From Ostreococcus lucimarinus (Eukaryota): a stretch of DNA of 64,000 bases. The stretch lies in the NCBI GenBank assembly GCA_000092065.1, contig CP000588.1. One strand, written 5' to 3'. Both the position numbers and the translations under genes were made by a program. The notes beneath the pieces are model-generated. The model worked only from the letters and a program-made list of their open reading frames with translations. It made no database searches and was not told the DNA's origin. Positions 13,101-61,670 of the stretch are shown piece by piece (the stretch's first letter is position 1; the number at the start of each line of letters is the position of its first letter).

Positions 13101-15687
13101 AAGTCTCTGGCTTGAACATCAAAATCATTCTCAAACCGTGCTCGGGATTACTTTTCGCATCCAACTCCAACGGACTTCTAAGAAACGCACGGTTGCGTCC
13201 ACCAAGTTTACCGATCAGTTGCATCGCCTTGGCGCCGAACGGCGACCCGCTCTGTTGAGGCTTGAGCATCGCCCACAACGCGAGCATCAACTCGGATTCC
13301 ACTTCGGCTATGCACGGGTCGAGAAACTCCGGATTCAATGAATCGACCCAGAACTCTAAAGTGCGTAGGCCTAGTAAGTTCAGTTCGTTTACTGGAGCAC
13401 GAAGCGCCTTACACAGCGGCGTCGCGAGCTTCGGTAAATGTGGAAGAATTGAAGACAGCCGCGCCGGCAGAATCAGGCACAACTCTACTACGGTGTCGTG
13501 TAACTCGTGCGGATCGGGTCCGTTCAACATCTCGAGCAAGCAGTCGAGACTGGCAGGCAAAATTGGTACGACTTCTCGGTAAAGAACGTCAAACTTGGCT
13601 TGCGCCATCGCTCGAAACAAATACCGAAGTAACCTGATGTACGCCGTAGGATTCTCGTGCTCCCGTATCGCCTGCAAGCATGATTCCATCATCGTGATGA
13701 CGTGCGAGCTCAGTACAGTTTCGCAGTTGCTATGCTTACTCACCGCATGAAGTAACAATGAGAAAAGCTTTAACACTAGCTGCGCTTCTTGTGACGATTG
13801 ATCGCTTAAGCACGACAACTTTTTCTCCAATAAGTAAGTCACAAACGCATCGGCGGCATACCGGCACAATTTCGCGTTCTGCAACAACAAATGGGGAACT
13901 TGTACCATCGTTGGCAGTTCTAACATTCCCGTGAAAAAGTGATCAAAGTGTAAGCAGATAATATCAACGAAATTTCGCGGTTCTAATACCGCCAAAGCTT
14001 CGGAAAAGTGCGTGCACATTTCTGTGCACTCCGTGCCCTTGAACAACTGCATGCACTTCACTCCGTTGCGAATAAATCCAGCCGAGCGCCTGAGCTCCAT
14101 GCTATCCAGTCCCAAGTCGGTGGGTTCAGAACCATTAAAGTTCGTAATACTCCACAGAAGTGTCTTCATACCGATTGTCAATGTTTTGATGATGGCTTTG
14201 CTATCTGAAAGCGATCTGAGCTTCTCGTGACTAGGGAGCTCTGGATCCTTCTCATCGTTAGCAGCGGCGTTCTTTGCGCCGCTCGCCGTTTCATCAACTT
14301 TTTTGCTCGCCGTTCCTTCAGCGCTGTCTACTTTAGGTGGCCCTGCAGCTTTGTCAGTTTTCGCCACCTTTGCCTTGATAGCTTTCTCTAAATCGTTCGC
14401 AGTCTCTAAGAGCTCGGGGACATTCGAACGCAGCGTTCTAAACTTTGCTACAGTGGCGTACATGATGTGCACTAAAAGATGCCGAGCCTGCTCCGCTTGG
14501 GTCTTCTCACTGCGCATGCGGAATATGGATTCTACAAGATGGTGCATCAGCCTCGCGCATGTCATGTGCGTCGACATTGGCAAAGTAGTATCTTGCATGT
14601 TCCGACTAAAGATGTGCACAGCTCGGCGAATCTGCGGTAGCGTAAGCTCCGCCTTCATATGATGCACTAGTTCAGCGAGGAACGAGTAAGCCAGCGGTCG
14701 CAAACTTTCAATGCACATTCGCCCCGTACCGACGAGGATATCATCATCCATCATCAAATCCAAATGCGCAAAGAACCGTTTGCAAAATGCAGGAACGCTC
14801 AGCACGTGGCGCGTGGCGACCAAGAGCTCCTTGCGCGTCGCTACGACATCTGGACAAGTCTTCAGCAACGAGACTATGGCGTCAGAGACCGCTTCTTGGT
14901 ACGGCTCCACTAGAGACGCGCTACCTCGAAGAAGATACGCGATGAAGCTGATCGTTTTCACTTGAGCCGCTTTCAGGTCGCAAAATATCGTTCGCATCGT
15001 CGGCGACATTGAGTCAGAATCGTGGCCTTCCAAGCTTGTAAACTTCACCATGAGCGGTATCATCGCCGATACTTCAGTCTGTATATTGCGATTGTAGAGC
15101 TGATAAAGCAACATGACGATGAGTGGACACTCTGTCATCACTTTAAACGACTCCAACGCCGGTATCTCACATGGATTCGACGGCTTCTCTTTCCGCCCGC
15201 GCTGCTTCACCGTCCCGCCCAGAATGTTCTCAACGCACTCCTCTGCCGAGGTGTATACGTCGGAAACGAACGCTAAAAACGGCGAGCGACGCTCATCCAT
15301 TGAAGGTCTAAAGTTTCGGTGCAAGTCAAAGATGATTCGCAAACATAGCAGCGCGTTCTTCTCGTTCTCCGACGCCAACGGGTCCAAAGCCAAATTCAAC
15401 AGTTCCTGCTCATACGGCCGTAGGACCTCGTTAAACGGCAATCTATTCAAAATCTCGTAAATGACATGACGCAGTGCATTCTCTTCGTCATCTACCAGCG
15501 TCGGTTCCGTCTTCTTCGTTAGGATCTCTTTGAAAATCGGGAAATAGCTCTTGAGAAAGTGCACGTATTCGCTCGTGTGCACGACTTCAATACCATCTCG
15601 CACGTTCGTCGCGATCTCTATCTGCTCGGAAGTCGACGCTGCGTTTAGCAATCGCTGTGCCTGCGCTCCATACGCCGTCTGCGCCAT
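4156..15687 (-). CDS. TRRAP: TRRAP/Tra1 PIKK-family pseudokinase scaffold of SAGA/NuA4-type acetyltransferase complexes (3,843 codons, no intron)
   Basis: The track start at 15741 is TTG; the first ATG is at 15687 (MAQTAYGAQ...). The protein is a giant HEAT/FAT repeat protein. Its C-terminal PI3K-like domain has degenerate catalytic motifs: GGRTPNKIMF where PIKKs have DRHxxN, and FMLDFHPAF where they have DFG. It ends in a FATC-like aromatic tail (...AAIWAPWY). This is the expected TRRAP/Tra1 pattern. Confidence 0.9.
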   Translation of the reverse strand: MAQTAYGAQAQRLLNAASTSEQIEIATNVRDGIEVVHTSEYVHFLKSYFPIFKEILTKKTEPTLVDDEENALRHVIYEILNRLPFNEVLRPYEQELLNLALDPLASENEKNALLCLRIIFDLHRNFRPSMDERRSPFLAFVSDVYTSAEECVENILGGTVKQRGRKEKPSNPCEIPALESFKVMTECPLIVMLLYQLYNRNIQTEVSAMIPLMVKFTSLEGHDSDSMSPTMRTIFCDLKAAQVKTISFIAYLLRGSASLVEPYQEAVSDAIVSLLKTCPDVVATRKELLVATRHVLSVPAFCKRFFAHLDLMMDDDILVGTGRMCIESLRPLAYSFLAELVHHMKAELTLPQIRRAVHIFSRNMQDTTLPMSTHMTCARLMHHLVESIFRMRSEKTQAEQARHLLVHIMYATVAKFRTLRSNVPELLETANDLEKAIKAKVAKTDKAAGPPKVDSAEGTASKKVDETASGAKNAAANDEKDPELPSHEKLRSLSDSKAIIKTLTIGMKTLLWSITNFNGSEPTDLGLDSMELRRSAGFIRNGVKCMQLFKGTECTEMCTHFSEALAVLEPRNFVDIICLHFDHFFTGMLELPTMVQVPHLLLQNAKLCRYAADAFVTYLLEKKLSCLSDQSSQEAQLVLKLFSLLLHAVSKHSNCETVLSSHVITMMESCLQAIREHENPTAYIRLLRYLFRAMAQAKFDVLYREVVPILPASLDCLLEMLNGPDPHELHDTVVELCLILPARLSSILPHLPKLATPLCKALRAPVNELNLLGLRTLEFWVDSLNPEFLDPCIAEVESELMLALWAMLKPQQSGSPFGAKAMQLIGKLGGRNRAFLRSPLELDAKSNPEHGLRMILMFKPETSFLVPLDRCIVLMQNILSTPLIPNVKASEALIRHRRQALTFIRTCLISALNLSAGHALSGSVEQIESAIEAAISNGWGKKFDSATVAEGSTQLGNKTKSQLVAEQNVFKQLVITVIAAECDPTLKETDETFMDSVCEHMAMLFVSNAVRPEQPVADRMDHDSIDRPRSMNLKILETTLFLDALMKSLESPKQVHLNATLKTIGTFIDAVLILTRDEVDEIQAAEDTMEKKPTPKKSKKKTMDVDESSYPKLAAFIEALLPRLVHCCYKQEAHCIIGGVAGLDRLCKSLPTSILKSRLPDILPAIMRAIQLLPVYAMTQKKEAEEVFLRIIERSIPSGSEPPTVIEGDSGDGVAASVSILLEELRSVASTCACRTAVEKALLGIAERTSTTMESILSQSKSHLTVLLEKPLQTRHVLAQIQLVKFVDFCLIRSPSLIPLKDMSVQTSPGAFFNAVLLVAESDDNTVLNVETQENESLSTLRQSCVKVLSTALSTPEFSKSDSSADIVAVRERISTVLFTSLTSRNGDIVAIAKRGLVEVKPHMNKNTLKQSVSPILMNLQHLSKLTIPLLEALEYLLELLAEWFSPTLGEKLLEHIKYWLELDASAPSVPGQIRKSPKDAKLIASIVNLFHLLPKLRDGKSDAKANEPKLTPFDFIKPLVRDVMAIEATMPPESVYSEANSLYTVPLTKFLCKYPKESIAYFLARLDQPEHFSLFVKILKLSEGAELLNALTATSSKLLRVIFGANGELDEHDKIAMKDLQKNKDPQLAYYNGLKLLSTIVKIMPKWLSEESAILTQLDECWDSEERADRLLNGYTNSLPAMMESKYLVKCFLSVVKGDRSQVQILFKIMPVLCKCSVVDYTFVREFIKSEVVDVYTPAERNAVLTQFLTEFREQAEAGGEADPDVLVTALKVLINPMLEKVLVGCADEDGEASSEALEVVTDEFVNELVDDVLEPSDGDNTTLYNESLLIQLLQLSTLLIRHVPKTLVNHRKELIKFGWNHLKREDSSSKQWAFVNISYFLQAYQAPEKIILQVFVALLRAYQPEQKSLVTEALDALTPALPLRLQPGEHKHPIWIRYTKKSLIEDGHSLPQLVHIWNLIVRHSKLFYSSRAQFVGQMVNLLSRLGLPTSSSHSNRVLSVDLVELIISWENDRITGVGSNEAEPSTTGKRKAAESPERDEEVTTPTRRGKKGTKKSKKEEAESKSPGRSKRASRSAKQTKEEEEATEEMVSDLPDTEKLKSMPKSADDQDEEKEFETSPAMAEIIVNFLVRMTFITGEGKDQDAQVLNVRTLDLLSKALAMWPSVRIKFTFIDKLLTLANQAQRDPTSTLIMGLSVLKCALKTPDYEFVTESIQQTLRLIEPSYSSASREAHGLLGEVIGEILKCNGDSNGKHDADIEELRQHIGVFYVKCTEDAIISKSSPNNDQANTSLAGILTVVESEAVFAASKIDTYLPNLMKVLARMTHELNTASAAGELQAAHPKRGQAPPEVLEPEYGSVAYCMAKCIKILSQRVIAAGSDQKQIFLRLLLQLINDKSTHGNVLMAILDAMVTWTDDLALGEGGAPEDNDTRVGSLNAKETVLFLSKLAQLTRMGLAITQTQAWEEKLLGAIYKLCAPEGKHDPAVRTEVFLKVERTHLLGLRTRRPELRKKFFALYHDAIGKSLFQRLQYILTIQDWDAMADTFWLMQGLDLILSTLAEDERIMLAPNSALITPLLPIDSETKKPLPVPAKSKNAKANPAELDDLIKRHAKFLHEKAQIRVNDLMSPLRQVATRNAHIAYYLWVLIFPIVWATLQREEQLQLAKPMIGLLSKESHLRQAAVRPNVIQALLEGISLSQPQLKIPSELSKFLGKTFNAWHTAIALLENHVVRYPQEARCFDALSELYRLLNEQDVLVGLWMQRCQSDVTRAGLSLVQHGHWQDAQDVFFKGIQLATAGQAPGVSKTEMCLWETQWLNSAKQLNQWDLISDFSRTVEHSELMVQSMWRLSDWAGVKDLMPSGTLNEIEETPEITTVRAFASLVSGRVREAEQHWANAVKSSLDRWWRLPETGSTCHIPSLHMFNAIAEVQESTRILLELSNTQRRGVQGITNNRTLVQDIMETWRLRTPNEWDPVPWWSEILMWRGNMHNIMTHAAKQIGEQNPAMLQVTQQLDQLGQRERAWSLNKFARAARKQRLPEVALNILSRHQGQVEVSEAFSKLREQCEAYLAFENEAITGINLLESASLEFFSPPQKAELFRLRAKFQEQLEDYDAAHASYSTSVSLCKQRAESWLSWGKFCRMRGDDGSISNIAQQTATCYLQAVKHNVHENRHQLIHVIQMLAFDVNPEPISLAIVRHLDALPTWVWIPWIPQLLLSLAHQEQAYALAILKDVAAAHPQAVYYQLRTCLLERRDSAARATQTARTIAEKSGATQKSSSAPGTPLPPDVAAAASRAKDANWAFEAAKEIMEHIRTRHGNLVGELEVLLSELGTKFACTPEERLLVVVYTLLHRCYKYPAATTGEVPESFKKELIGVCKACFSADTSAKHADFVEEYKASYERELNPEESTFPTTVAELMVKLKAWKQRLLNDVEDRLPATLRLEAESDQLRNVTFHEIEIPGQYSGDLTFGVTDRFVKLERIGADVHVVRRNGNCLRRLEFLGTDGSSKQFLVQTSLTPAARGEERMVQLLSTLNGVLAKHTETRRRNMCYYTPAIVPVWPQVRLLEDDDANGTYAEVYDANCARYGREADLPITLFKAALDPAILGEVTGTEEVLELRLKALMEITQKHVTENIFSQYMYKTLPSSSHLWTFKRQLSQQLAMSSFLSALLRIGGRTPNKIMFAKNTGKIFMLDFHPAFDQKGIVEYIEPVPFRLTRNLHTFFTPFGVKGDFVASMASAAQACTAPEADLEAHLELFFRDQLMVWPWRRMGGDTPPVSPSPSEIKNMARANVQEVLRRLPIIAPTPVLPDTSDTVPSVQKAVLHLVDAALNIRNVSRSAAIWAPWY

Positions 15688-16156
15688 GATCACCGCCCTC
15701 GATCGCCCTCGAACTCGACTTGAGCACGGATTTGATGCCAATTGTTAGGGCAGAGGTCCGATCGGTCGAATTGCGACGAATGCTCCGCGACGAGGCGCGC
15801 GTTTTCGATCTACAATCGCGCCAATACGATCGAAGAGGGTTCTTCTTTCGTTTACCGCGGCCAATCGAAGGAGTGGGCGCGCACGCGTCGATCTAGCGCA
15901 CGATTCAGCCGGCGAATTCGCGATCGGAATTGCCGCGAGGGTTCTAGAGGGAAAATAAGCGCACAGGAATTTTAGCGGTGTCGTTCGTTGGTACAGACGA
16001 GTGTCACACAGCTCGGTACCATCGTGCTGATTGAGACGACGAACATCGTTAAGATGGGGGCTTGTTAAGTTTACAACGCGAATGTTCTACACATAGAAAA
16101 GTAAGAAGTGTGAGACGCTGAGACGTCGGCGACGTCCACAGCCACATATTAGTCTG

Positions 16157-49588: not shown

Positions 49589-52500
49589 CTAACCTCGCGA
49601 CGGCGCGGCCGCTGGGAATACGCGCGTCAGGCGGTAGACTTTCATCGAGACCTCGTTGATCTCGTGCGAACTAGCGCTCCATTTAAATGGGTTCATCATC
49701 TCAGTCGAAACGCGCACGATGCCGCACACGACAAACGTGAGCAAGCCCACGGGCACCGCCACCGCCACGCCGTACGAATGAATAAACGCGAGCGGCGACG
49801 TGAGCACAAAGACATAACAGAGCAAGTACACGGAGTACATGTAGAAGGGCGGGATCGGAGTGCTGACGATCGTTTCGCAGTTTGTCCACGCATCGAGGAT
49901 GCAGTCGATATCGTGGTAGATGCGGTAAAGTCTCTGTTCGTTGTTGACTTGACTCTTTGGGAGCGAACGCATCGCGCGCTTCAATTCGCCGCTGCACTTA
50001 CTGACACGAAACGCAGGCGCGATACCAGCGTAGGCGTTTCGCTGCTCTGCATTCATAAGATCTTTTGTCGATGGAGCGCCAAAGAAATCGTCATCGAGTA
50101 CGGTGTTGGGTGTCAACTCTTCCTTTGGTCGGAAAGTCGAGGGATATCCTACTCGAGACTCTCGAATCGATTGACGAGCGAAAGCCATGAGCGAGTTTAA
50201 CATGCTCAGCATCTTCGCGTGTGCCGCGCAATCTTCGTCAGTTTCAGACGATTGAAATGCAGTGTTCAGTTCAATGACCAAGTCTCTCCCGTAATCGATC
50301 AAGTTGTCCAAATATTCACGAGCGGTGTAGTAGCGCGTGTACGTCAAATTCAGCAAATGGGCGATGCAAAAGCCCAACACTGGGACGGCGATAGTATGAC
50401 CTTCGGGCGTGATCAATGTCTTGCATTGTCCGGTGGTGTAAAGCTCATCTTTGTCACAGACGGCTTCGGATAGGAAGTACAAGCCCATGGCGGCGGCGCA
50501 AGCGGCAAATATGAAAGGAAGCGTCGGCAAGATGAGCGTCCCACGTAGAGACACGAACTCGGTGAAAATACCAAATTTGCCACTCCTGAAGCTTCGTTGC
50601 TTCGGGAACGTCCACCCGGCCGGCATTTCGCGATCATAAGTCCAAGCAGGAGCGACCGCAGTCTGATCGACTTTTTGTCTCACTTCTTCGTAGCACTCCT
50701 TCCCAACGTCTAGGCGTTTTTCCTCGACTCGCTTCACCAAGAGAGAGATTTCCGCTTTGAGCTCATCGCTTTCTGCCAAGCTTTCGTGCGTGTGCGCACA
50801 AGATTTCCACAGAGATTGGCCCATTACGATTAAATCGTTTGAGCACATGACATCGCGCGTGAAAGGCTCTTCAAGGAGACCGGCTATGTCGATCATTCCA
50901 TACAGTGTCAAGGCAAGAATGCCGAGCGGTAGCCACGTCATGTACGTGAAGGCCACGACGATGACGCTTGCGGTCGCAAACATCCACAAAAAGAGTACAA
51001 TGTTGATCAAATGTTTCAACGAGTATGGTGCTCTCGTGTTCCTTGCGCGGGTACAACGAGAAAACGCGTGCAGAGCGGTTTGCATGCTATTCGCCATCAT
51101 CGCTGCCCCACGATTAGTTATGCATCCAGAGCTTCGGGCGGTCTCTACTTCCGCAAGAAGACGAGCGGCGATCGTAGCGACGCGTTCTTCTGAAGACGCG
51201 TCGAACAGTTTGAGGAAACTATTTTTGCCTTCTTCATCGAGAAGCGCACCCAGTAGTGATTCAGCGTCTTCATCGTAAAAGAGAGTGTGGGCGTCGCTCA
51301 GTTTCGTTTTCGTCTCGCCGTGGGCGAGATCCTTATTCAAGCTCTGACGCATGCTTGCAAAAAGTGCACAGCTCAAACGAAGAACTGCATATCGAGCTTT
51401 GCGAACAGCTTTAGCGGAGTTATCTTTGATTGGCTTCCCCGCCCTAGAAAGCTCGCGCAAGTGCGCGCAGGCTTGGATGTTGAGCGTGTACAACGAGTAC
51501 AGGAGATCGTAAATCCCCGTCTTTGCCTCGTAAAATACTCGAAACGCAAAGAAGAATCGATAGACAACCGCAAACATTGTCATACGTCCAATTATAGAAA
51601 CAGCTGCGGGCGCAAACACGACGTCGCACATCCTGTGGTCCGTAACGTCGTCGCCACAAAACTCAAGTTTGTAAAACTGCGCGCCAACGCCTATGAACAT
51701 CATGACGAACATCATCGGCCAAATATGTGGGAATACGGTGTTTCTCAATCGAAACAAGTACGAAAAGTACGACGAAGTCGAATCCACGCCACGTTGACGT
51801 CGTACTGCCTCCCAAACTGTGAGATCTCTCAGGGCTTTGGGGGCGGCCGCGCCGCTCAGAACGAGAGCATCCACGCCCGAGTGTGTTGTTTCTTCAGCAT
51901 CGCCGACGGCGCGCGCACATTTTTCATGAATGGCGATAGTCTCAGTGTACAGTGCCCAGCCAACTTTCGTTAAGTCGTGTTTAGGATCTTCCCAGCCGAA
52001 AGGATCAGCCAACAAACTCCCCAGCTCTGCGATTCCAAATAGCGATAGAGTCACCAACATTGACGGCACGACGGCGAGCCATTTGTACGAGGTGATGAAC
52101 ACAAACGGAGAAGAAAGTGCGAAGAAGAAGACGACAAAGTTCATCAAATGGATGAAAGCAAAAGGCATCGAGCTTGAGACGATTCGTTCAATATCAGCGA
52201 CCGCATTCACGCACGCCTCTATTCGACCGAGCATCTCGAATGCGCTGCGTTCGGAGATGTGTCCGAGGCGACGGCGTTCGTCAATGATGGCGATCATCTT
52301 CGACGCGCAGCACCCAACTCGCGCTCTATAATCACATTTTAAATAGCGAGCTTTTTCAGCATCTGTGAGCATAACCGATAGTGACGGCCAGCCTCGAGGA
52401 TCATCAATCATCTCTTCATCGGTAGGCGACAACTTCTTCAACGTGAAAGGCTCGACGCCGTGGCGACGCTCACGAACGGCTTGCCGCATGAACGCCATAA

Positions 52501-55375
52501 GCACGCATGATAACCGACGAATCTCCGTGACATCATCGTTAATTTCTTGCTCCAGCTCAGGAGATGATCTCCGATTCAGAGATCGCATCATCGTGCACGC
52601 ACCAAGGTTGAGACAACGCAAGCTGTTCACCATCACGCCAACCAAGCCTTTGCCGTCGTAATATCGCGAGTAAGAGAACATAAGCCTGAAAACGAGGGTG
52701 AAGCCGATTATAGAACCGCTCATAACGTGTGCTTTGTCATCAAACGTGAAACTGCATTGCGTCACATTCGAAACCGAACTCCCACACCAATGAATTTTCA
52801 AGAAGTTTGCGAGTACGGATACTGCGCCAGTCAATGCAATTTGAAGCGCAATCTGCGGCACGACTGTGTTTCGCACGTGAAACACGCATGAGACGAAAGA
52901 CCAACCCGTGCGTAGCGCCTGCATGTTCTTTATGGCACCTGTTTTAAATTCTTTCTCGTAGTTTGAGATATTCTTGACGCGGATGGAAGGTGCCGCCAGG
53001 AGTGACTTTTTACTCCGGTTTGCGCCGAGGCTCTCCCTGTAGAGGCCGCCAGCTGTGCTCAAATGATCGCCCAGAATCTTGGCTTCATCCATGAGTTTCA
53101 CCCATGTATCGTCACTGCCTCGCATCTTCATCGCGAACGCACCAAGTCGTTCATGACGAGTAAACATGCGCGAACCCATTCCGCTCAGATCGTGGCGCGG
53201 ACCGGTCCAACTGAACGGCTCCATCATACTTGTGGAAGTCTCGGCGATACCATAAAACGCGAGTGCGACGAGTATCACTGGCACGCTCGTGATCCACTGG
53301 TAGCTCACACTCAAAACAAACGGCATAGTGAAGACATAGAAGAATAGTAAAACTTGCAGCAAGTGTCGAAAACGGTTCGGCACCGGCGTCGACACGACTC
53401 GCATCAAGCCTTGCATCGCCTGCAGCGAGTTGCATACTTTTCGGTAGGCCTCAGCGCTAAAGCGCTCAGTCATAGCGCCTGATCGACCGTATTCTTCAAA
53501 AATTGCGTTTAGTCTCATCCCTACCCACGTCGGGAACGCATGCACGGGTAGAGATTTCAATTCAGGGTGCTCCGATTCTCGAACCAAATCGCAGAGTTTA
53601 CACGCGCCGCCAAACTTGTCCATCGTTAAAATATCATCGAGCTTGACTGTATTTCCCGATGGATCACGACTTATAAGCTCTCGCACGGCGATTCTCGCGA
53701 AGCCATACATGACGTTCGACAAACGCTGCACTTCTCTTGCGTCCGCTTCGACCGCACTCAGGTCGTCATTTTTTGCCGTCGTGAAAATCGCCGAGCACGC
53801 CGTCAACGAACGCAGACTGTTCTGCATACTGACAACCAACTTTTTGGAAGAAATGAAACGCTCGTACCCCCAATCAGTGTTAATGACGAGTAAGAGCGAA
53901 ATAGGCATCGCCAGTATACGATGGGCAGAGAGATCAAACGTCACAAGGCACTGCGACGAGTCAGTGACGTTCCAACCGCACACGAGTATCTTCAGCAACT
54001 GCGCGCCGATACCGACGACGGCCGCGAGGCCAATTTGACGGCCGATGTGAGGAAGCGTAGTCTTTTCCCAAGCAAAGCAATCGATCACGAACCAAAACGG
54101 ATTGCGCCATCTCCGGTAATTCATTGAATCTACCGATAGCGGTTCGTCGTCCACGTCGATGCCGACTACGTCTTTGCTCATCTTGAACGCATCCATCTCC
54201 CGTTCGATTCTTCGAGCTATGACATTCAGGGGGTGAGCCGGAAGCACCCATTTGAATGGATCTTCCAGTGTGCTCGCAATCTCATTGACGCCGTAAAATA
54301 ACCACGCAAGTGTCGCGCTCACGAGCGGCGTTCGCCAATCCATGAGCGAACTGAGCGCAAACGGCGCGGAGAAGATGAACGCGAATAGCAACACCGTCAC
54401 GGTATGAGAGTACTGTTTCGGTGTCGGTGTTTCGATTATCAGCATAGCCTGTCGATAAGCGTCGAGCGCGCGTTGAGACTCGCGAAATGCCTCCATCGCG
54501 GCGCGTTCGCTCAAAACGCCCGCGCGGTGCATGGTTTCGATGCGAGTCAGCGCGTCAATCATAACCGCATCCGGACGATTCTCGACCGCCAACTTCGCGT
54601 ACTCTGTACGTTCGTCACGTTTAGTGAGATTGGAAACGTTCGGAGTGCCGTCGTCATCGCGGTGGAGCAAAGACTCGGTCGAAACGTCGCGCTTGCCGCC
54701 GCGAACGCCGGCGTCGACGACGCCGAATCGCGATTCGCGCAAAGCTTGTCGCATGAACGCGAACGTCAAGTTGCACAATCGACGAATTTCACTCTGAAGC
54801 TCTTCTATCGTCGTCGGCGTATGGTGATCTTTGCTCGAAAACATGGACGCGATCGACCCCGACGCCGGTTCCCGCGCCTCGACGTCCGTCACCGAGGCGA
54901 GATTTCGCAGCGCGTCCTTCACGTCAATCATCGCGAATTTCCCATCCTCGAACCGCCTAAACGCCTGCACCGCGCGAAACACCAGCAAGAACGACAGCAC
55001 CGCCGACACCGCGTAGTGCGCTTCGATCGTAAAAGCGTACCGACACGTCGTCGAGTACCGCTGCGTCTCGTCGCACGCCGACAGTTTCAACCACTGCGCG
55101 CCCGCGCCGACCACTCCCGCCAGCGCGATCTGCGGCGTCACCCTCGACACGCACGCCATCCAGAGCGACACCAAAAACCCGAGCCTCCGCTCGAGATCTC
55201 GCGCGTCGCGCGCGCGTCGCGTCGCCGTCGCGCCCTTCCCGCGTTCGCCCCCTTCCTCGCGCGTCTCGCCGCGTCCAATCCATCGCGTCGTCGCCTCCCC
55301 GTCCCGCGTCGTCGTCGTCGCCGGCGCCGCGTCCCGCACCGCGTCGCGCGCCTCGCCCTCGCGTCCCGTCACCAT
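49589..55375 (-). CDS. Giant membrane protein with five tandem bestrophin/UPF0187-like (anion channel) units in one ORF
   Basis: The track start at 55444 is TTG; the first ATG is at 55375. There is no stop for 5.8 kb. Approximate unit coordinates are 54191-55183, 53150-54112, 51920-52912, 50795-51781 and 49625-50602. Each unit carries three blocks: the FR-x-x-x-(F/Y)-x-R-(F/Y) helix, the (S/T)-P-x-P helix, and the (E/D/N)PF...(D/H)L block. These are the blocks I know from E. coli YneE (FLGFRNSASYSRFVEAR; TTPVPFAYT; LEDPFG..NDLPL). Confidence 0.8.
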   Translation of the reverse strand: MVTGREGEARDAVRDAAPATTTTRDGEATTRWIGRGETREEGGERGKGATATRRARDARDLERRLGFLVSLWMACVSRVTPQIALAGVVGAGAQWLKLSACDETQRYSTTCRYAFTIEAHYAVSAVLSFLLVFRAVQAFRRFEDGKFAMIDVKDALRNLASVTDVEAREPASGSIASMFSSKDHHTPTTIEELQSEIRRLCNLTFAFMRQALRESRFGVVDAGVRGGKRDVSTESLLHRDDDGTPNVSNLTKRDERTEYAKLAVENRPDAVMIDALTRIETMHRAGVLSERAAMEAFRESQRALDAYRQAMLIIETPTPKQYSHTVTVLLFAFIFSAPFALSSLMDWRTPLVSATLAWLFYGVNEIASTLEDPFKWVLPAHPLNVIARRIEREMDAFKMSKDVVGIDVDDEPLSVDSMNYRRWRNPFWFVIDCFAWEKTTLPHIGRQIGLAAVVGIGAQLLKILVCGWNVTDSSQCLVTFDLSAHRILAMPISLLLVINTDWGYERFISSKKLVVSMQNSLRSLTACSAIFTTAKNDDLSAVEADAREVQRLSNVMYGFARIAVRELISRDPSGNTVKLDDILTMDKFGGACKLCDLVRESEHPELKSLPVHAFPTWVGMRLNAIFEEYGRSGAMTERFSAEAYRKVCNSLQAMQGLMRVVSTPVPNRFRHLLQVLLFFYVFTMPFVLSVSYQWITSVPVILVALAFYGIAETSTSMMEPFSWTGPRHDLSGMGSRMFTRHERLGAFAMKMRGSDDTWVKLMDEAKILGDHLSTAGGLYRESLGANRSKKSLLAAPSIRVKNISNYEKEFKTGAIKNMQALRTGWSFVSCVFHVRNTVVPQIALQIALTGAVSVLANFLKIHWCGSSVSNVTQCSFTFDDKAHVMSGSIIGFTLVFRLMFSYSRYYDGKGLVGVMVNSLRCLNLGACTMMRSLNRRSSPELEQEINDDVTEIRRLSCVLMAFMRQAVRERRHGVEPFTLKKLSPTDEEMIDDPRGWPSLSVMLTDAEKARYLKCDYRARVGCCASKMIAIIDERRRLGHISERSAFEMLGRIEACVNAVADIERIVSSSMPFAFIHLMNFVVFFFALSSPFVFITSYKWLAVVPSMLVTLSLFGIAELGSLLADPFGWEDPKHDLTKVGWALYTETIAIHEKCARAVGDAEETTHSGVDALVLSGAAAPKALRDLTVWEAVRRQRGVDSTSSYFSYLFRLRNTVFPHIWPMMFVMMFIGVGAQFYKLEFCGDDVTDHRMCDVVFAPAAVSIIGRMTMFAVVYRFFFAFRVFYEAKTGIYDLLYSLYTLNIQACAHLRELSRAGKPIKDNSAKAVRKARYAVLRLSCALFASMRQSLNKDLAHGETKTKLSDAHTLFYDEDAESLLGALLDEEGKNSFLKLFDASSEERVATIAARLLAEVETARSSGCITNRGAAMMANSMQTALHAFSRCTRARNTRAPYSLKHLINIVLFLWMFATASVIVVAFTYMTWLPLGILALTLYGMIDIAGLLEEPFTRDVMCSNDLIVMGQSLWKSCAHTHESLAESDELKAEISLLVKRVEEKRLDVGKECYEEVRQKVDQTAVAPAWTYDREMPAGWTFPKQRSFRSGKFGIFTEFVSLRGTLILPTLPFIFAACAAAMGLYFLSEAVCDKDELYTTGQCKTLITPEGHTIAVPVLGFCIAHLLNLTYTRYYTAREYLDNLIDYGRDLVIELNTAFQSSETDEDCAAHAKMLSMLNSLMAFARQSIRESRVGYPSTFRPKEELTPNTVLDDDFFGAPSTKDLMNAEQRNAYAGIAPAFRVSKCSGELKRAMRSLPKSQVNNEQRLYRIYHDIDCILDAWTNCETIVSTPIPPFYMYSVYLLCYVFVLTSPLAFIHSYGVAVAVPVGLLTFVVCGIVRVSTEMMNPFKWSASSHEINEVSMKVYRLTRVFPAAAPSRG

Positions 55376-55897: not shown

Positions 55898-57083
55898 CGA
55901 TGGCCGCGGCGCGACGGACGCGGCGCGCGACGACGACGCGAGAGACGCGAGAGACGACGAAGACGCGAGAGACGACGCGAGAGACGACGCGGACGTCGTC
56001 GCGCAGCCGGAGTGGATGTGGGACGACGCGCCGGATGATTTTCGCGAGCGGTGGTACGCGCGCGCGCGACCGCGCGGGACGCGGTGCGTGGTGGTGGCGA
56101 CGCGGGGACGAACGACGGCGCGGAGCGCGCGGGACGGGACGACGCTGCGGACGTTTCAATCGGGATTGCCGGGAGGGAGCGCGCGGACGAGTCGAGGGCG
56201 GAGCGGGGAGTGCTTTTGCATACTCGATTGCGTGTTCGCGGAGGATGAGCGGGCGAGGAATGAGACGGGCGGGCGAGGGAAGGAGGCGGCGACGGCGAAC
56301 GCGCGAGGCGCGTATCACGTGTTGGACGTCATGGCTTGGAACGGGGCGGCGATGTACGATTGCGACGCGGAGTTTCGGTTTTTCTGGGCGCACACGCGAT
56401 TGACGGAGGAGTGCGACGCGTGTGAGGCGCCGAACGCGGCGCTGGGGAGAGACTTCGCGTTCGTCCCGACGCCGTGGTACGAGTGCGACGTCGACGGCGT
56501 CTCGAGAGCGTACGCGGGAGATATCGGTACCGAGATCGATGGGTTGCTGTTTTACCACAAAGAGGCGGCGTACGAAAATGGCGCGACGCCGCTCGTGTTG
56601 GCGTGGCGCGATGCGAAGACGTCGGCGTTTTTCACGCGCGACGAAGGCGCGGCGACGGTGCTCTCGCGCGCGGGCGTCGTCCTCCCGGGAGACCCCACCG
56701 CGGCGCAAATCATCACCTTGACGAAGTCGAGCGACGGAAGATTCTTCGTCACCGGTGACGATGAGCCAATGGTCATCGCCGCCGTGGATGCGGTACCGCG
56801 GGCGTCGGAGAAAGTCGCCGCGCCCGCGACGCTCGAGCCGGGCCGCTCGGGCCGTTTTCTCGTCGGTCCGTCGGGATTCGACGTCGACGTCGAAACCGCG
56901 CACGTGCGAAGCGCTGACTTGCACTATCTCGGTCCGAAACCACCGAAGCGACGCGGTGTCGATCGCGCGGACGCGCTTTCGAAGATCCTCTTCAACGCTC
57001 GAGCGCGAACGGCGCCGCTCGGCATCGACGCTCTGTTGTCCGCCGCCGCCGCGGACGCCCCCATGACCGATCACGCGCGTTGA
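55671..57083 (+). CDS. SNUPN: Snurportin-1-like m3G-cap snRNP import adaptor
   Basis: The track start at 55530 is TTG; the first ATG is at 55671. IBB-like N-terminus: YTARRRAATLERQRAAKRDAL. Cap-binding domain colinear with human SPN1: WMWDDAPDDFRERWYARARPRGTRCVVVATRGRT, FQSGLPGG, CILDCVF, YHVLDVMAWNGAAMYDCDAEFRFFWAHTRL, EIDGLLFYHKEAAYENGATPLVLAWRD. Confidence 0.75.
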
Positions 57084-57253
57084 ACACGTCGACGATCCGA
57101 CACAGTCGTACTAGTTTTAGCTTGTCATCGCTAGCGTTCATCTTAGGGAAACGTCGCGCTCGCGTCGCCTTCTGCAAAACTCGTCGCGCTCGCGTCCCGC
57201 TCGCGCTCCCGCGAACGCCTCTCCCGCGCGCGTCGCCGCACTTCGCCGCGCCC

Positions 57254-59317
57254 ATGGGTTCGTCCACGCCGAAGAAGGAGAAGAAAGAAAAGAAGGAGAA
57301 GAAAGAGAAGCGCTCGAGCGAGGACAAATCGCCGGGCGGCGGCGATGAGCGGTCGAAAAAGCAAAAAGTGCAGGACGATGGCGGCGGCGGCGAACCCACG
57401 CGCGTGCGCGTCGTTGGACTCACGAAGACCGCGAACGCGGACGGCGTGGGCGCGTTTCTGGGTTTGGACGCCGCGAGCGTCGTGGTCGGGATGTGGGGAA
57501 CGCACGGGAAAGGCCCGAAGCCACCGGGAGGGCAAGCGTTCGCGACGACGGCGTCCCGAAGCGCGGCGGAGAAGCTCGTCGAGGCGTTCGATGGAAAAAC
57601 GCTGGATGGAGTCGAGTTGAAGGTGATAGTGGATGATGGAGACGTCGCGGTGCACTCGAATGGGGGAGTGACGCCCGGGAAGGACGCGAAGCCGACGATA
57701 AAGACCATGGAGGTGCCGCGACCGCCGTTGTTCGGCGGCGGCGGCGGCGCGGCGGCGAATGTATCCGTGTCAAACGCCGATACCGCGCCTTCGATGTCGC
57801 CGCATGATGTACGAGCGGACGATTGGTCGTGTGGGGCGTGTGGGTGTAGTAACTTTGCACGGCGAACGTCGTGCTTTAGGTGTGCGGCGCCGAAGAGCGC
57901 GACGACGAGCGGGGCGCCGGCGACTGCGGTGAACACCGCGGCGGCGCGCGCGTCAGCGCAAGGAAACGCACAAGATGGGTATGAGGTGTTTTTGAAGTAT
58001 TTGCCGCACAGCGCGAACGAAGAGGAGGTGACCAAGTATTTCGCCGACTGCGGCGCCATGGTCAGTCAGGCGCGTCTGTTGCGCGACCCGCAGTCGGGTC
58101 AACCCAAAGGAGCGGGATTCATCACGTTCGTAGACGAAGCGGGCAGAAACGAGGCGTTGAAGCGCGACGGTGCGCGATTCGGCGGTCGCAACGTGTCCGT
58201 GACGGTGGCGAAAAAGAGCACGTTCGGCGTGCGCGCCACGGATCAGGCGTACGGAACGCACACGCCGGCGATGTTAGCGGAAACCATCGCGGCTCTCGTC
58301 GCCCCTGATCGCTCGGGCGTGTACGTGGACGGAACTTTCGGACGTGGAGGTCACACGCGCGGAATTCTCGCCGCGCTTTCCGCCGAGGGTCGCTTGCACG
58401 CGTTCGACATGGATCCAGAGGCGATCAAGGTGGGCAAGGAGCTCGAAAGAGAAGACTCCAGGTTTAAGATTCACCACGCCCCGTTCGGATGCATGGCGGA
58501 CGTTTTGAGACCGCTCGGCGTGAAACCGTCTGGAGTATTCTTAGATTTAGGGATTTCTTCGCCCCAATTCGACGACTCGTCGCGAGGGTTCCGACCCGAG
58601 CAAGACGGTCCGCTCGACTTGCGCTTTGACGTCGAGCGCGGCGTCCCCGCGAGCGAGTATCTCAGACTCGTTTCGCGCGAAGAACTTCGACGGGTGATTC
58701 ACGAATACGGTGAGACCACTGATCCAATCGCCGCCCGTCGAATCACGGACGCCATCGTGCTCGCGCGTGAAAACGGTTCGCTCCCGAGCACGACGAAGGA
58801 ATTCGCCGCCCTCGTCGCCAAGGCCAAAGGCAAAGAATACCAGATGATGCATCCCGCCAAGCTCACGTTCCAAGCTTTACGCATCGCGCTGAACCAAGAG
58901 TTTGACGAGATGCGACGCGGTATGCACGCCGCATTCGATATCATGCCCGAACACGGACGTTTGGGCATCCTCACCTGGAAGCACAGCGAGTGCGCCATCG
59001 TCGTCGACTTTTTCCGCGACTACGAAGTCATCCGCGACGACTTCCCCCTCTACGAGTGGGCGCTCAAGAACCACGCCGATAAGTGCTCGAAGAAGCTTGA
59101 ACGCAAGTGGGGCATGCACATGGACGACGCTCAGCGCCCGAGCGAGCAAGAGATGCGTCAAAACAGCCGTTCGCGTTCCGCGACGCTTCACGTCCTCCGC
59201 AAGCGCGAAGCCGTGCGCATCGCCGACTTGGAGCGCCTCTCGTACAAGCTCAAGGGTTGGGGCAAGATCCCAGACGCGAAACCGGCGCCACCGGTGACGT
59301 TCAACTACAAGATATAG
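57254..59317 (+). CDS. Fusion protein: K/E-rich N-terminus, RRM-like domain, RanBP2-type zinc finger, RRM, then a full RsmH/MraW-type rRNA N4-cytosine methyltransferase
   Basis: The track start at 57080 is TTG; the first ATG is at 57254 (MGSSTPKKEKKEKKEKKEK). RRM-like ~57398-57640. Zinc finger DDWSCGACGCSNFARRTSCFRCAAPK ~57815-57898. RRM YEVFLKYLP...KGAGFITFVDEAGRNEAL...VSVTVA ~57980-58213. RsmH ~58256-59206, with HTPAMLAE, YVDGTFGRGGHTRGIL, LDLGISSPQFDDSSRGF, DGPLDLRFD, HPAKLTFQALRIALNQEFDE, GRLGILTWKHSECAIVVDFF and SRSATLHVLRKRE. Confidence 0.8.
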   Translation: MGSSTPKKEKKEKKEKKEKRSSEDKSPGGGDERSKKQKVQDDGGGGEPTRVRVVGLTKTANADGVGAFLGLDAASVVVGMWGTHGKGPKPPGGQAFATTASRSAAEKLVEAFDGKTLDGVELKVIVDDGDVAVHSNGGVTPGKDAKPTIKTMEVPRPPLFGGGGGAAANVSVSNADTAPSMSPHDVRADDWSCGACGCSNFARRTSCFRCAAPKSATTSGAPATAVNTAAARASAQGNAQDGYEVFLKYLPHSANEEEVTKYFADCGAMVSQARLLRDPQSGQPKGAGFITFVDEAGRNEALKRDGARFGGRNVSVTVAKKSTFGVRATDQAYGTHTPAMLAETIAALVAPDRSGVYVDGTFGRGGHTRGILAALSAEGRLHAFDMDPEAIKVGKELEREDSRFKIHHAPFGCMADVLRPLGVKPSGVFLDLGISSPQFDDSSRGFRPEQDGPLDLRFDVERGVPASEYLRLVSREELRRVIHEYGETTDPIAARRITDAIVLARENGSLPSTTKEFAALVAKAKGKEYQMMHPAKLTFQALRIALNQEFDEMRRGMHAAFDIMPEHGRLGILTWKHSECAIVVDFFRDYEVIRDDFPLYEWALKNHADKCSKKLERKWGMHMDDAQRPSEQEMRQNSRSRSATLHVLRKREAVRIADLERLSYKLKGWGKIPDAKPAPPVTFNYKI

Positions 59318-59858: not shown

Positions 59859-60587
59859 CTACTCGTCTCTCTCTCTCGCGCGCGCGCGGCGTCGACCCGC
59901 CTCGCGACCGTTGACGTACTCGGCGGTTTCGACGAGCTCGCGCAGAAACGCGTCGACGCCCGACGCCCCGTCGTCGTTCTCCAACACCTCCAGCATGAAC
60001 TCCCGCTGACGCCGCGTGACGAACGCGATGCACTTCTCGGGACATCGCTCGCTCGCGCACCACTCGGCGTACGCCAGCGCCGACGTCTCGTCCGCGCTCG
60101 CGTCCCCGAAGTCATCCCGCTCGATCCATCGCGCCTTCCCGGTCGTCGCGTCCGCGACGAACGACCTCGGCGCCGCCTCGACGCAGCTCGACGCGCACGC
60201 CGCCGCGCCACGACACCGCGTCGCCGCGACGAATCCGTGTCGCGCGCCGTCGAACGTCCTTGCGAGCGTCTTCGCCGCGAACGCGTCGCCGTCGCCGTCG
60301 CTCGCGCTCGCGAGCGTCCCGTCGCGCGCTGACGCCATCGCGCGCTCGTACGCCGCGCGCACCGCGAGCGCGCGCGCGGTCGACCCTCGCGCGGCGTCCG
60401 GGTGCGCGTCGCGCATCGTCGCGCGGTACGCGTCGCGCACGTCTCGCTCGGTGAGCGTCGCGGCGTCGCGCGCGTCGAGCCCGAGGCGTCGCAGCGCCGA
60501 CGCCGCGTCGTCCGAGGACGACGCCGCGACGCGCGACGCGCGGCGCGGCGGCGGAAAACGCGTCGGCGCGAATCCGAGCGCGCGCAT
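59859..60587 (-). CDS. J-domain protein with a C-terminal Cys-rich ferredoxin-like module (plant DJC76/NdhT-class architecture)
   Basis: ATG at 60587. J-like domain with intact HPD: LGLDARDAATLTERDVRDAYRATMRDAHPDAA...AVRAAYERA. Cys clusters: CRGAAACASSCVEAAPRSF and CASERCPEKCIAF. The overlapping 532-aa track ORF 59837..61435 is a different frame and low-complexity. Confidence 0.55.
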   Translation of the reverse strand: MRALGFAPTRFPPPRRASRVAASSSDDAASALRRLGLDARDAATLTERDVRDAYRATMRDAHPDAARGSTARALAVRAAYERAMASARDGTLASASDGDGDAFAAKTLARTFDGARHGFVAATRCRGAAACASSCVEAAPRSFVADATTGKARWIERDDFGDASADETSALAYAEWCASERCPEKCIAFVTRRQREFMLEVLENDDGASGVDAFLRELVETAEYVNGREAGRRRARARERDE

Positions 60588-60659
60588 CGAAGTGCGGCGC
60601 GGATTCGACGCAAAACGCGACGCGACGCGGCGCTAAAGCGCGTCGCGAGTCCCGCGAAC
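60588..60659. promoter_or_regulatory. 72-bp ATG-to-ATG spacer (J-domain/ferredoxin-like / SpoU methyltransferase); presumed bidirectional promoter
   Basis: Divergent start codons at 60587 (-) and 60660 (+). Confidence 0.45.
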
Positions 60660-61670
60660 ATGCGCGGCGCGTCGCGTCGCGCCGCCGCGGTCGTCGCGCG
60701 CGCGCCGGGGCGCGCGGCGTCCCAGTCGCGCGCGCGTCGAATCCGCGAATTGCACTTTTCGGGCGACGAAAACGCCGCGCACCGCGCGCCGCGCGCGCGA
60801 ACGGCGCGCGCGAGCGCGCGAGACGGTCGACGCGCGCACGCCGCCGATGCGGACGGCGTCGAGCGCGTGTCGAGCGCGGAGAACGCGACGGTGAAGCACT
60901 TTGTAAAGTTGTGCAAGAGCAAGGCGTACCGGGACGAGCGCGGGACGGTGGTGCTGTCGTCGAGCGTGCTCATGCGCGAGTGCTTCGGGCGCGCGGGAGA
61001 GGGGCGCGAAGCGAAAACGCTGTTCGTCGCGGATTGGGCGGAGGCGCCGGCGGGAATTCGGGCGAAGAGGGTGATTCGGGCGCCGGCGAGCGTGCTGAAA
61101 AAGTGCGCGGGGGTGAACAACGCGGACGGGTTGGACGCCGTGGGGGAGTTCGCGTCGCCGGTGATCATGAACGCGCGCGAGTTCGTCGATGGTGCGAAAC
61201 AGAGGGACGTCGTGCGCGTGCTCGCGGTGGAGGGGGTGCAAGATCCCGGGAATTTGGGAACGCTCACGCGCACGGCGGTGGCGTTCGGTTGGGACACCGT
61301 GGCTTTACTTCCGGGAACGTGCGATCCGTTCAACGACAAGGCGATGCGCGCGGCGCGTGGGGCGACGTTTCGAGTCGATTTCGTCGCCTTCGATTCGTTC
61401 GACGATCTCGCGAGCGCTGGAAGAGAATTGAACATGGAGTTGTACGCCGCCGAGCCGAGCGCGAAAGAAGACGTCGACCCCGAACGGGCAAAGGCTGTGG
61501 CGAAGGCGTGTCTGGTGCTCGGTACCGAAGGTCAAGGATTGAGCGACGATGCCTTGCGCGCGTGCAAGCCGGTGGCGATTCCGATGTCGGGGGAGATGGA
61601 AAGCTTAAACGTCGGCATCGCGGGTGGCGTTCTGATGTATTTGATGCAGGCTACTACGAAGACCCGATGA
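60660..61670 (+). CDS. SpoU/TrmH-family RNA 2'-O-ribose methyltransferase with presequence
   Basis: First ATG is at 60660. SPOUT motifs: AVEGVQDPGNLGTLTRTAVAFG, LVLGTEGQGLSDDAL and IPMSGEMESLNVGIAGGVLMY. An N-terminal substrate-binding-like segment is present (ENATVKHFVKLCKSKAYRDERGTVVL). Confidence 0.75.
   Translation: MRGASRRAAAVVARAPGRAASQSRARRIRELHFSGDENAAHRAPRARTARASARDGRRAHAADADGVERVSSAENATVKHFVKLCKSKAYRDERGTVVLSSSVLMRECFGRAGEGREAKTLFVADWAEAPAGIRAKRVIRAPASVLKKCAGVNNADGLDAVGEFASPVIMNAREFVDGAKQRDVVRVLAVEGVQDPGNLGTLTRTAVAFGWDTVALLPGTCDPFNDKAMRAARGATFRVDFVAFDSFDDLASAGRELNMELYAAEPSAKEDVDPERAKAVAKACLVLGTEGQGLSDDALRACKPVAIPMSGEMESLNVGIAGGVLMYLMQATTKTR

Follow-up and report, generated by a model that had tools for sequence, protein, structure and literature searches.

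In bacteria, mitochondria and plastids, enzymes of the RsmH (MraW) type place N4-methylcytidine (m4C) on small-subunit (SSU) rRNA, at a nucleotide that contacts the P-site codon. Escherichia coli RsmH makes m4C1402 in 16S rRNA, METTL15 modifies the 12S rRNA of animal mitochondria, and CMAL is a chloroplast-localised 16S rRNA m4C1352 methyltransferase of Arabidopsis for which no RNA recognition motif (RRM) is mentioned (PMC7102989). Here, we describe a gene at 57254..59317 of a 64,000-nucleotide stretch of Ostreococcus lucimarinus DNA (contig CP000588.1; the whole stretch is called the window below) that encodes five parts in the order Lys/Glu-rich tail, divergent RRM (by predicted fold), RanBP2-type zinc finger, canonical RRM and complete RsmH domain. 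The catalytic domain belongs to a familiar type; what is new is its architectural context and its probable compartment. A search of the full-text literature for RsmH or MraW with RRM, in algae, dinoflagellates and protists, and for m4C in 18S rRNA, found neither an RRM-RsmH fusion nor a non-organellar RsmH described, and the database names are automatic only, either '16S rRNA (cytosine1402-N4)-methyltransferase' or 'RRM domain-containing protein'. Our preferred reading, which we hold with somewhat less than even confidence, is that the protein is a non-organellar RsmH-type RNA m4C methyltransferase that is brought to its RNA by its own modules and acts most plausibly on 18S rRNA; we infer compartment, substrate and m4C product from sequence comparison. 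The features of the gene are as follows.

57080..59317, + strand: open reading frame (ORF), first ATG at 57254
57084..57253, + strand: intergenic or presumed 5´ untranslated region, open in frame and without ATG (read directly, and by a census of ATG and stop codons)
57254..59317, + strand: complete coding sequence in a single exon, 687 amino acids (aa) plus stop
57254..57388, + strand: aa 1-45, disordered Lys/Glu-rich tail with a KKEKKEKKEKKEK repeat, then KR...KKQK; predicted local distance difference test score (pLDDT) <50
57389..57637, + strand: aa 46-128, predicted divergent RRM-fold domain (AlphaFold2 topology and Foldseek) with the loop insertion WGTHGKGPKPPGG
57812..57898, + strand: aa 187-215, RanBP2-type C4 zinc finger (Pfam PF00641, E 7.7e-7)
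57980..58207, + strand: aa 243-318, canonical RRM (Pfam RRM_1, E 2.9e-13 over aa 245-314; pLDDT 78-93)
58208..58255, + strand: aa 319-334, linker from RRM to RsmH, AKKSTFGVRATDQAYG, without a stop codon
58256..59203, + strand: aa 335-650, RsmH/MraW catalytic domain (Pfam, NCBIfam, PDB match and predicted structure)
59204..59314, + strand: aa 651-687, family-specific C-terminal extension with a predicted helix at 656-667 (R-x-A-D-L-E-x-x-x-Y-x-L-x-G-W)

Domain architecture and integrity of the protein

The catalytic domain matches Methyltransf_5 (PF01795) over aa 335-650 with an E-value of 2e-65, spanning profile positions 3-308 of 309, and reaches 208.6 bits with the NCBIfam RsmH equivalog TIGR00006 (profile positions 6-309 of 310), for which the curated cut-off is 154.3. 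The domain E-values exclude chance. Among solved structures, E. coli RsmH (3tka; E 4.9e-54, 187.5 bits) is the best match, and pairwise alignment with the E. coli K-12 enzyme gives 39% identity over 325 columns. These values bear out the initial annotation of this DNA, which had assigned the domain to the RsmH family from motifs. In an AlphaFold2 model built on the family alignment, aa 336-667 mostly exceed a pLDDT of 90, and the best Foldseek matches of the predicted RsmH part are 3tka (template modelling score, TM, 0.90), 1wg8 and 1n2x; the model has the two-lobed RsmH fold, a Rossmann core with an inserted helical domain. Two family motifs are altered (TWKHSEC for SFHSLED and DGPLDLRFD for DGPLDMRMD). 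E. coli RsmH has no counterpart of the C-terminal extension, and its alignment stops at about aa 654; E660 and W669 of the extension are at least 90% conserved across 50 members of the family described below.

In E. coli RsmH, S-adenosylmethionine (SAM) is bound by GGH 35-37, D55, F79, D101 and Q108 (UniProt/HAMAP numbering). The positions that align with them, G365-G366-H367, D385, F411, D431 and Q438, are invariant in the 50-sequence family alignment, and a catalytically competent, SAM-dependent RsmH-type methyltransferase is favoured. It is very unlikely that the protein is mainly a non-catalytic assembly factor, acting as a chaperone or checkpoint of the pre-ribosome with dispensable methylation. 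There is a precedent in METTL15, the catalytic activity of which is reportedly dispensable for its part in mitoribosome biogenesis (PMC11197891), but the invariance of SAM-binding and motif residues across 50 diverse members argues for selection on catalysis. An assembly role is in any case compatible with our preferred reading and not exclusive of it.

Pfam profiles for the RanBP finger (PF00641), RRM_1 and Methyltransf_5 all match on one chain. Every peptide string quoted in the initial annotation is present in the protein, and the domain order that it claimed holds, by Pfam profile and, for the first RRM, by predicted fold. Across aa 1-199 no Pfam family is found even at E<=1, and the first RRM is undetectable by sequence profile. 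The full-length AlphaFold2 model gives aa 46-128 a beta-alpha-beta-beta-alpha-beta topology at pLDDT 82-93, and a separate model of aa 42-134 reproduces an RRM-like fold. When the isolated domain is compared with the PDB by Foldseek, all of the best 50 matches listed are RRMs or quasi-RRMs, 34 of them with E<=1e-3. They include Fox1, SART3, Glorund, ESRP1 and TIA-1; E-values start at 7e-5 and TM reaches 0.77 (both for the Fox1 RRM), at identities of 13-21%. What had been called an RRM-like domain is accordingly confirmed only as a predicted fold, that of a divergent RRM, and has no match to a sequence profile. Its loop insertion is clade-specific, and alignments show Bathycoccus-type orthologues to be without it.

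The zinc finger matches Zn_ribbon_RanBP with 28.7 bits against a cut-off of 27. It follows the motif W-x-C-x2-C-x3-N-F-A-R-R-x3-C-x2-C, reading D-W-S-C-GA-C-GCS-N-F-A-R-R-TS-C-FR-C, and W191, C193, C196, N200-R204 (N-F-A-R-R), C207 and C210 are invariant in the orthologues. Searched alone against PDB sequences, the finger finds RBM10 (1.1e-8), RBM5, ZNF265/ZRANB2, FUS and TAF15 as its best matches, and the Ran-binding fingers of Nup153/RanBP2 later. Its spacing pattern (W-x-C-x2-4-C-x3-N-x6-C-x2-C) and its N-[FW]-x-R-R RNA-contact residues assign it to the RNA-binding subclass of the RanBP2 type, and its likeness to RBM10, RBM5, ZRANB2, FUS and TAF15 marks the modules as apparently of nuclear type. 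In the second RRM, RNP2 (VFLKYL) and RNP1 (KGAGFITF) are both invariant in the orthologues, and this domain is conserved throughout the RRM-RsmH family. The tail holds 10 acidic (D/E) and 15 basic (K/R) residues in 45 aa, in keeping with its earlier description as Lys/Glu-rich and unlike a transit peptide, and the lysines of its KKE repeat are invariant in an alignment of 13 Mamiellophyceae orthologues. It looks like a nuclear or nucleolar localisation signal, and is reminiscent of the KKE/D tails found on nucleolar snoRNP (small nucleolar ribonucleoprotein) proteins.

That all these parts belong to a single polypeptide, as initially proposed, is supported by the uninterrupted ORF, by its recurrence on metagenome contigs, by orthologues and by the conserved linker. 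Nucleotides 58213-58256 encode aa 320-335, with neither stop nor spacer at the junction. The linker and the residues after it, AKKSTFGVRATDQAYG-THTPAML, are almost invariant in 13 Mamiellophyceae sequences, and A319, Q331, G334, H336 and P338 are at least 90% conserved in 50 family members, transcript-derived sequences included. At least 24 contigs from marine metagenomes, the longest of 263 kb, encode the identical 687-aa protein (24 contigs were read; 208 blocks of the collection index the protein). Full-length orthologues with all parts in order share 70-98% identity (Micromonas-like) or about 50% (Bathycoccus-like), and three orthologous loci are syntenic with the window. RRM and RsmH also lie within single ORFs of assembled transcripts from other lineages (MMETSP and EukProt), which gives transcript-level support for the core fusion in those lineages. 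We therefore regard the RRM-RsmH fusion as real. An artefact, in which adjacent genes for an RNA-binding protein and an RsmH were merged by assembly or by a chance ORF, is hardly credible. Long accidental ORFs do occur in GC-rich genomes, and many are listed in the window, but beyond this the artefact is an a-priori possibility only; against it stand the many independent assemblies with the identical protein, the conservation of the linker as protein from green algae to dinoflagellates, the transcript-derived ORFs, and a junction without a stop or a sizeable spacer.

The NCBI model of the Bathycoccus prasinos orthologue (P0018) lacks half of the zinc finger, with DWT-ARRGKYGEQ in place of DWTCEKCGGENFARRETCYKCAAGKYGE, and part of the first RRM-like domain is missing as well. 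In metagenome sequences of this species (P0009 and P0025) the ORF is continuous, and the public model probably contains spurious introns.

The RRM-RsmH family and other RsmH paralogues

An RRM directly upstream of RsmH is the defining core of a wider family that spans prasinophytes, chlorophytes, haptophytes, dinoflagellates, one dictyochophyte and one diplonemid transcriptome. Names are available for members from Bathycoccus, Chlamydomonas sp. UWO241, Prymnesium, Tisochrysis, Symbiodinium, Yihiella, Abedinium and Pseudopedinella; a further named one, found in a transcriptome of Artemidia motanka, a heterotrophic diplonemid, may be prey contamination. The divergent RRM and the zinc finger are added only in the Mamiellophyceae versions. 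The initial annotation overlooked both that the RRM-RsmH core is widespread in algae and protists and that the extra RRM with the zinc finger alone is lineage-specific. Additions in other members are three RRMs, a KH domain, a CCHC knuckle with a TrmY-like SPOUT methyltransferase, or an RluA-type pseudouridine synthase.

A neighbour-joining tree of 129 RsmH domains over 298 columns unites all 45 representatives of the family in a single clade, with 100/100 bootstraps, apart from bacterial-like proteins of about 310 aa (E. coli RsmH included) and from long dinoflagellate paralogues. By this tree, we consider the RRM-RsmH family monophyletic. With midpoint rooting the family adjoins the bacterial-like set, a placement that is not evidence of origin since that set was picked by similarity to the query. 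A bacterial scan of genome contigs with overly specific RsmH patterns returned one Rhodococcus (actinobacterial) locus at 32% identity, which is uninformative.

Some members carry further enzyme domains. The dinoflagellate proteins P0046, P0024, P0035 and P0040 (Symbiodinium and related) have a CCHC zinc knuckle followed by a TrmY-like SPOUT domain (PF04013), and P0061 ends in an RluA-type pseudouridine synthase; judged by their domains, these proteins are multi-enzyme RNA-modification fusions. Separately, RsmH paralogues that carry eukaryotic partner domains are greatly expanded in number (P0161-P0286 among the matches listed). These second-tier proteins are dinoflagellate where named (Polarella, Polykrikos and Gymnodinium), and their partners include WW domains (e.g., P0171, P0183 and P0206), C-terminal RRMs, tandem RsmH domains (P0161/P0176/P0181), PPR repeats (P0202/P0207/P0226) and a RanBP2-type finger (P0221/P0224).

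Compartment and substrate

The initial annotation left two alternatives, a retargeted nuclear or cytosolic enzyme and an organellar enzyme with a built-in RNA-recruitment module, and conceded that a hidden upstream exon with a transit peptide would weaken the first. Such an exon is contradicted by the DNA: the upstream snurportin gene stops at 57083, the 170-bp spacer that follows (57084-57253) has no ATG in any frame, and the stretch is unconserved among four syntenic loci. In the four species, DNA upstream of the conserved ATG barely aligns and the coding sequence just after it aligns well. One locus (L010) has an in-frame stop at -111 and another (L009) has no in-frame ATG upstream. Only the third (L008) has one, at -144, adding a 48-aa Arg/Ser-rich extension (MHARRSSSRTPARARRS...); this explains an NCBI model of 740 aa, the other NCBI model being 692 aa long and starting MGSSTP. 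The upstream 'M' in the metagenome calls P0002, P0004 and P0006 proved in the DNA to be TTG, GTG or CTG starts chosen by prokaryotic gene callers. A cryptic transit peptide was therefore rejected for the window, and the stretch upstream of 57254 behaves as non-coding GC-rich DNA would.

Bathycoccus-type calls (P0010, P0012, P0015 and P0025) place a hydrophobic 29-aa extension (MMIIAPPPVVSFFALLFPSFAHALIRHKK) before the MGDTTKRK start that is used by the NCBI model and other calls. Neighbouring species do not conserve the extension, which probably reflects a gene call extended too far.

The N-terminus itself (MGSSTPKKEKKEKKEKKEKR) has 5 acidic residues in 20, which does not fit a mitochondrial presequence, and its mixture of acidic and basic residues, together with the unconserved upstream stretch without ATG, does not fit a chloroplast transit peptide. 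The same picture emerges from the family. In 50 of 103 complete members, haptophyte and dinoflagellate proteins included, no more than 30 aa precede the RRM, which leaves about half of the members too short in front of it to hold a signal or transit peptide; in haptophytes and dinoflagellates this weighs against the plastid in particular, since plastid entry there needs a signal peptide for the endoplasmic reticulum. At least two acidic residues fall within the first 25 aa in 88 of the 103, and N-extensions are at least 8% acidic in 48 of the 53 longer ones. Clusters of at least five K/R within six residues of an N- or C-terminal tail are found in 62/103 members and in 0/39 bacterial-like RsmH proteins. 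PPR, the typical RNA-binding module of organelles, is attached to other RsmH paralogues. Taken together, these features favour a nuclear, nucleolar or cytosolic enzyme, as suggested by the lack of import signals and the Lys/Arg-rich tails in the family. Of the two initial alternatives, the retargeted enzyme is thus favoured by the family data, and its localisation stays an inference.

It is unlikely, though worth serious consideration, that the protein is instead a plastid (CMAL-like) or mitochondrial (METTL15-like) SSU rRNA m4C methyltransferase, imported by a non-canonical or non-AUG-initiated signal and using the RRM/zinc-finger module as a built-in recruitment device. Nearly all named family members belong to photosynthetic lineages; the upstream stretch is open in frame, is superficially transit-like in translation (Arg/Ser/Ala-rich, with 12 basic residues and no acidic one across its 57 codons) and has an ATG in one sister species; and RRM proteins are known in chloroplast ribosomes, with cS22 among the PDB matches. 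However, an Arg/Ala/Ser-rich translation is what GC-rich non-coding DNA is expected to give, the spacer of the window has no ATG, and the upstream stretch is unalignable between species, with L010 closed by its stop and L009 lacking an in-frame ATG. Members that start at the RRM make up half of the family and include those of algae with complex plastids, the mature N-terminus is highly acidic and basic, and the PPR-RsmH fusions of organelle type are separate paralogues.

Several points weigh against a non-organellar enzyme and keep our preference tentative. The K/R clusters are a crude proxy for nuclear localisation signals. The upstream ATG of the L008 species, with its 48-aa Arg/Ser-rich extension, is used by one NCBI model. 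With the exception of the Artemidia motanka transcriptome, the named members all belong to plastid-bearing lineages, which also fits a plastid-related role. No Mamiellophyceae-like second RsmH was seen among the long second-tier proteins, in searches in which the best 120-150 matches were filled by the RRM-RsmH family, dinoflagellate paralogues and bacteria and no query was suited to a CMAL- or METTL15-type paralogue; if the alga has no separate RsmH of those types, the window protein would be the sole candidate for organellar m4C. Finally, m4C at this site is held to be confined to bacterial-type ribosomes, cytosolic 18S rRNA having Cm1703 and m6A1832 instead, the latter proposed to take the place of m4C there (PMC7641309). 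A single report of N4,2´-O-dimethylcytidine (m4Cm) in mammalian 18S rRNA by liquid chromatography-mass spectrometry (PMC8208307) is mentioned as context only.

For the non-organellar enzyme that we prefer, the anatomy suggests the following course. The Lys/Glu tail would direct nuclear or nucleolar import, the zinc finger and the RRMs would bind single-stranded RNA near the target, and the conserved linker would hold the second RRM beside the catalytic domain. The RsmH domain, from the conservation of its residues, would then use SAM to methylate a cytidine at N4. The most likely target would be the 18S counterpart of C1402, which lies at the top of helix 44 within the decoding centre of a pre-40S particle: this is the nucleotide that all characterised homologues modify, each in an assembled small subunit, and the fusion partners of the family elsewhere are rRNA- or tRNA-modifying enzymes.

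Targets other than 18S rRNA may nonetheless be considered. It is rather unlikely that a non-organellar enzyme acts on tRNA, snRNA or mRNA chosen by the RRMs and a GGU-type finger, in the manner of TRMT2A and ALKBH8, two tRNA modifiers with RRMs. RRMs and RanBP2 fingers are readers of single-stranded RNA typical of pre-mRNA-binding proteins, yet RRM proteins are also common in nucleolar ribosome assembly, and Nop4 and Nop15/Rbm-type proteins are among the structure matches. The dinoflagellate fusion partner PF04013 is a family of putative SAM-dependent RNA methyltransferases, to which the archaeal tRNA m1-pseudouridine methyltransferase TrmY belongs, and the two altered RsmH motifs could mean a changed substrate. 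On the other side, all characterised RsmH homologues (E. coli RsmH, METTL15 and CMAL) methylate the same SSU rRNA cytidine, and the decoding centre is nearly identical between 16S and 18S rRNA.

More generally, we tentatively propose, with a little less assurance than for the window protein itself, an undescribed and ancient eukaryotic family of RRM-RsmH enzymes that act outside organelles and place m4C on the decoding-centre cytidine of 18S rRNA or on another nuclear-encoded stable RNA. An RsmH paralogue with nuclear-style modules in the ecologically dominant Mamiellophyceae, in haptophytes and in dinoflagellates makes m4C on cytosolic rRNA or nuclear RNAs a testable matter, and the window protein is a named enzyme for asking whether eukaryotes put m4C outside organelles. 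If they do, this would contradict the view of the mark as confined to bacterial, mitochondrial and plastid ribosomes, and abundant marine phytoplankton would have a distinct decoding-site chemistry, with bacterial-type m4C or m4Cm on 18S rRNA. Should the enzyme be organellar after all, no RsmH before it would have been known to carry an RNA-recruitment module of its own.

Genomic setting and comparison with described systems

The window has a GC content of about 50-68% in 2-kb steps and densely packed genes, like a Mamiellophyceae picoalga genome. Stretches at 8001-16000 and 50001-54000 have about 50-52% GC amid sequence of 60-68%; introns, low-GC genes or a region resembling an outlier chromosome are possibilities. 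Rfam and tRNA scans of the window found no non-coding RNA genes. The upstream neighbour of the RsmH gene is a snurportin-like gene ending in TGA at 57081-57083, and on metagenome contigs with the identical protein the gene always lies between snurportin-like and BSD2-like genes, both confirmed by Pfam. In the window, L008 and L009, the snurportin-like gene and the RsmH gene share a strand; in the P0006 species (L010/L011) they are divergent, on opposite strands, which indicates a local inversion. On the minus strand at 59859-60587, a 242-aa ORF without a Pfam match is called as a gene in all related contigs and contains, by eye, an HPD-like J-domain motif (YRATMRDAHPD). Two genes downstream of the RsmH gene, a gene for a SpoU/TrmH-family RNA 2´-O-methyltransferase (60402-61670, + strand; PF00588, E 5.4e-33) is found, and its closeness is kept in the same-species loci L001-L005.

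Compared with bacterial RsmH/MraW (E. coli, 3TKA; m4C1402 of 16S rRNA), the window protein has the same catalytic domain, the same SAM-binding residues and a predicted fold at TM 0.90. It differs by a 334-aa N-terminal extension with two RRM folds (the first as predicted), the finger and the K/E tail, by a conserved 37-aa C-terminal extension, by the altered motifs and by being the product of a eukaryotic nuclear gene. Its nearest non-eukaryotic relatives among the matches listed are bacterial proteins of about 310 aa at about 40% identity, one of them gammaproteobacterial. METTL15 is likewise a nuclear-encoded eukaryotic RsmH homologue of the same fold (TM 0.78-0.83) but is far more distant, with E-values of 1e-28 to 1e-31 and 102-111 bits against 187.5 bits for E. 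coli RsmH; in the PDB sequence search, the window protein is thus not closer to METTL15 than to bacterial RsmH. METTL15 is mitochondrial and has neither RRM nor zinc finger, whereas the window protein has no recognisable presequence. CMAL (At5g10910), an RsmH orthologue (PMC7102989), shares with the window protein that both are nuclear-encoded RsmH proteins of the green lineage. No plant-like proteins were recognised among the best 120 homologues or among the inspected members of the best 150 cluster representatives (from a library in which entries are unnamed).

The RNA-binding part recalls RBM5 and RBM10, with which it shares the order RRM1 - RanBP2 finger - RRM2, a finger closest to that of RBM10 and the N-F-x-R-R signature; RBM5 (9ze0) aligns across the finger and RRM2. 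The OCRE and G-patch domains of RBM5/RBM10 were not found by Pfam on the whole chain, where only three families matched, which limits the likeness to the module. A further difference is that the first RRM of the window protein is too divergent for sequence models and that the module is joined to an enzyme. Finally, other protist fusions (WW-RsmH of dinoflagellates, PPR-RsmH, tandem RsmH and RsmH-RRM) hold the same catalytic domain in multidomain proteins but form separate groups in the tree, share 32-45% identity and have different partners in a different order. The RsmH domain thus emerges as a modular unit in protists, fused to RRM, RanBP2, WW or KH domains, to PPR repeats or to further RNA-modifying enzymes, and this modularity is useful for predicting compartments and substrates.

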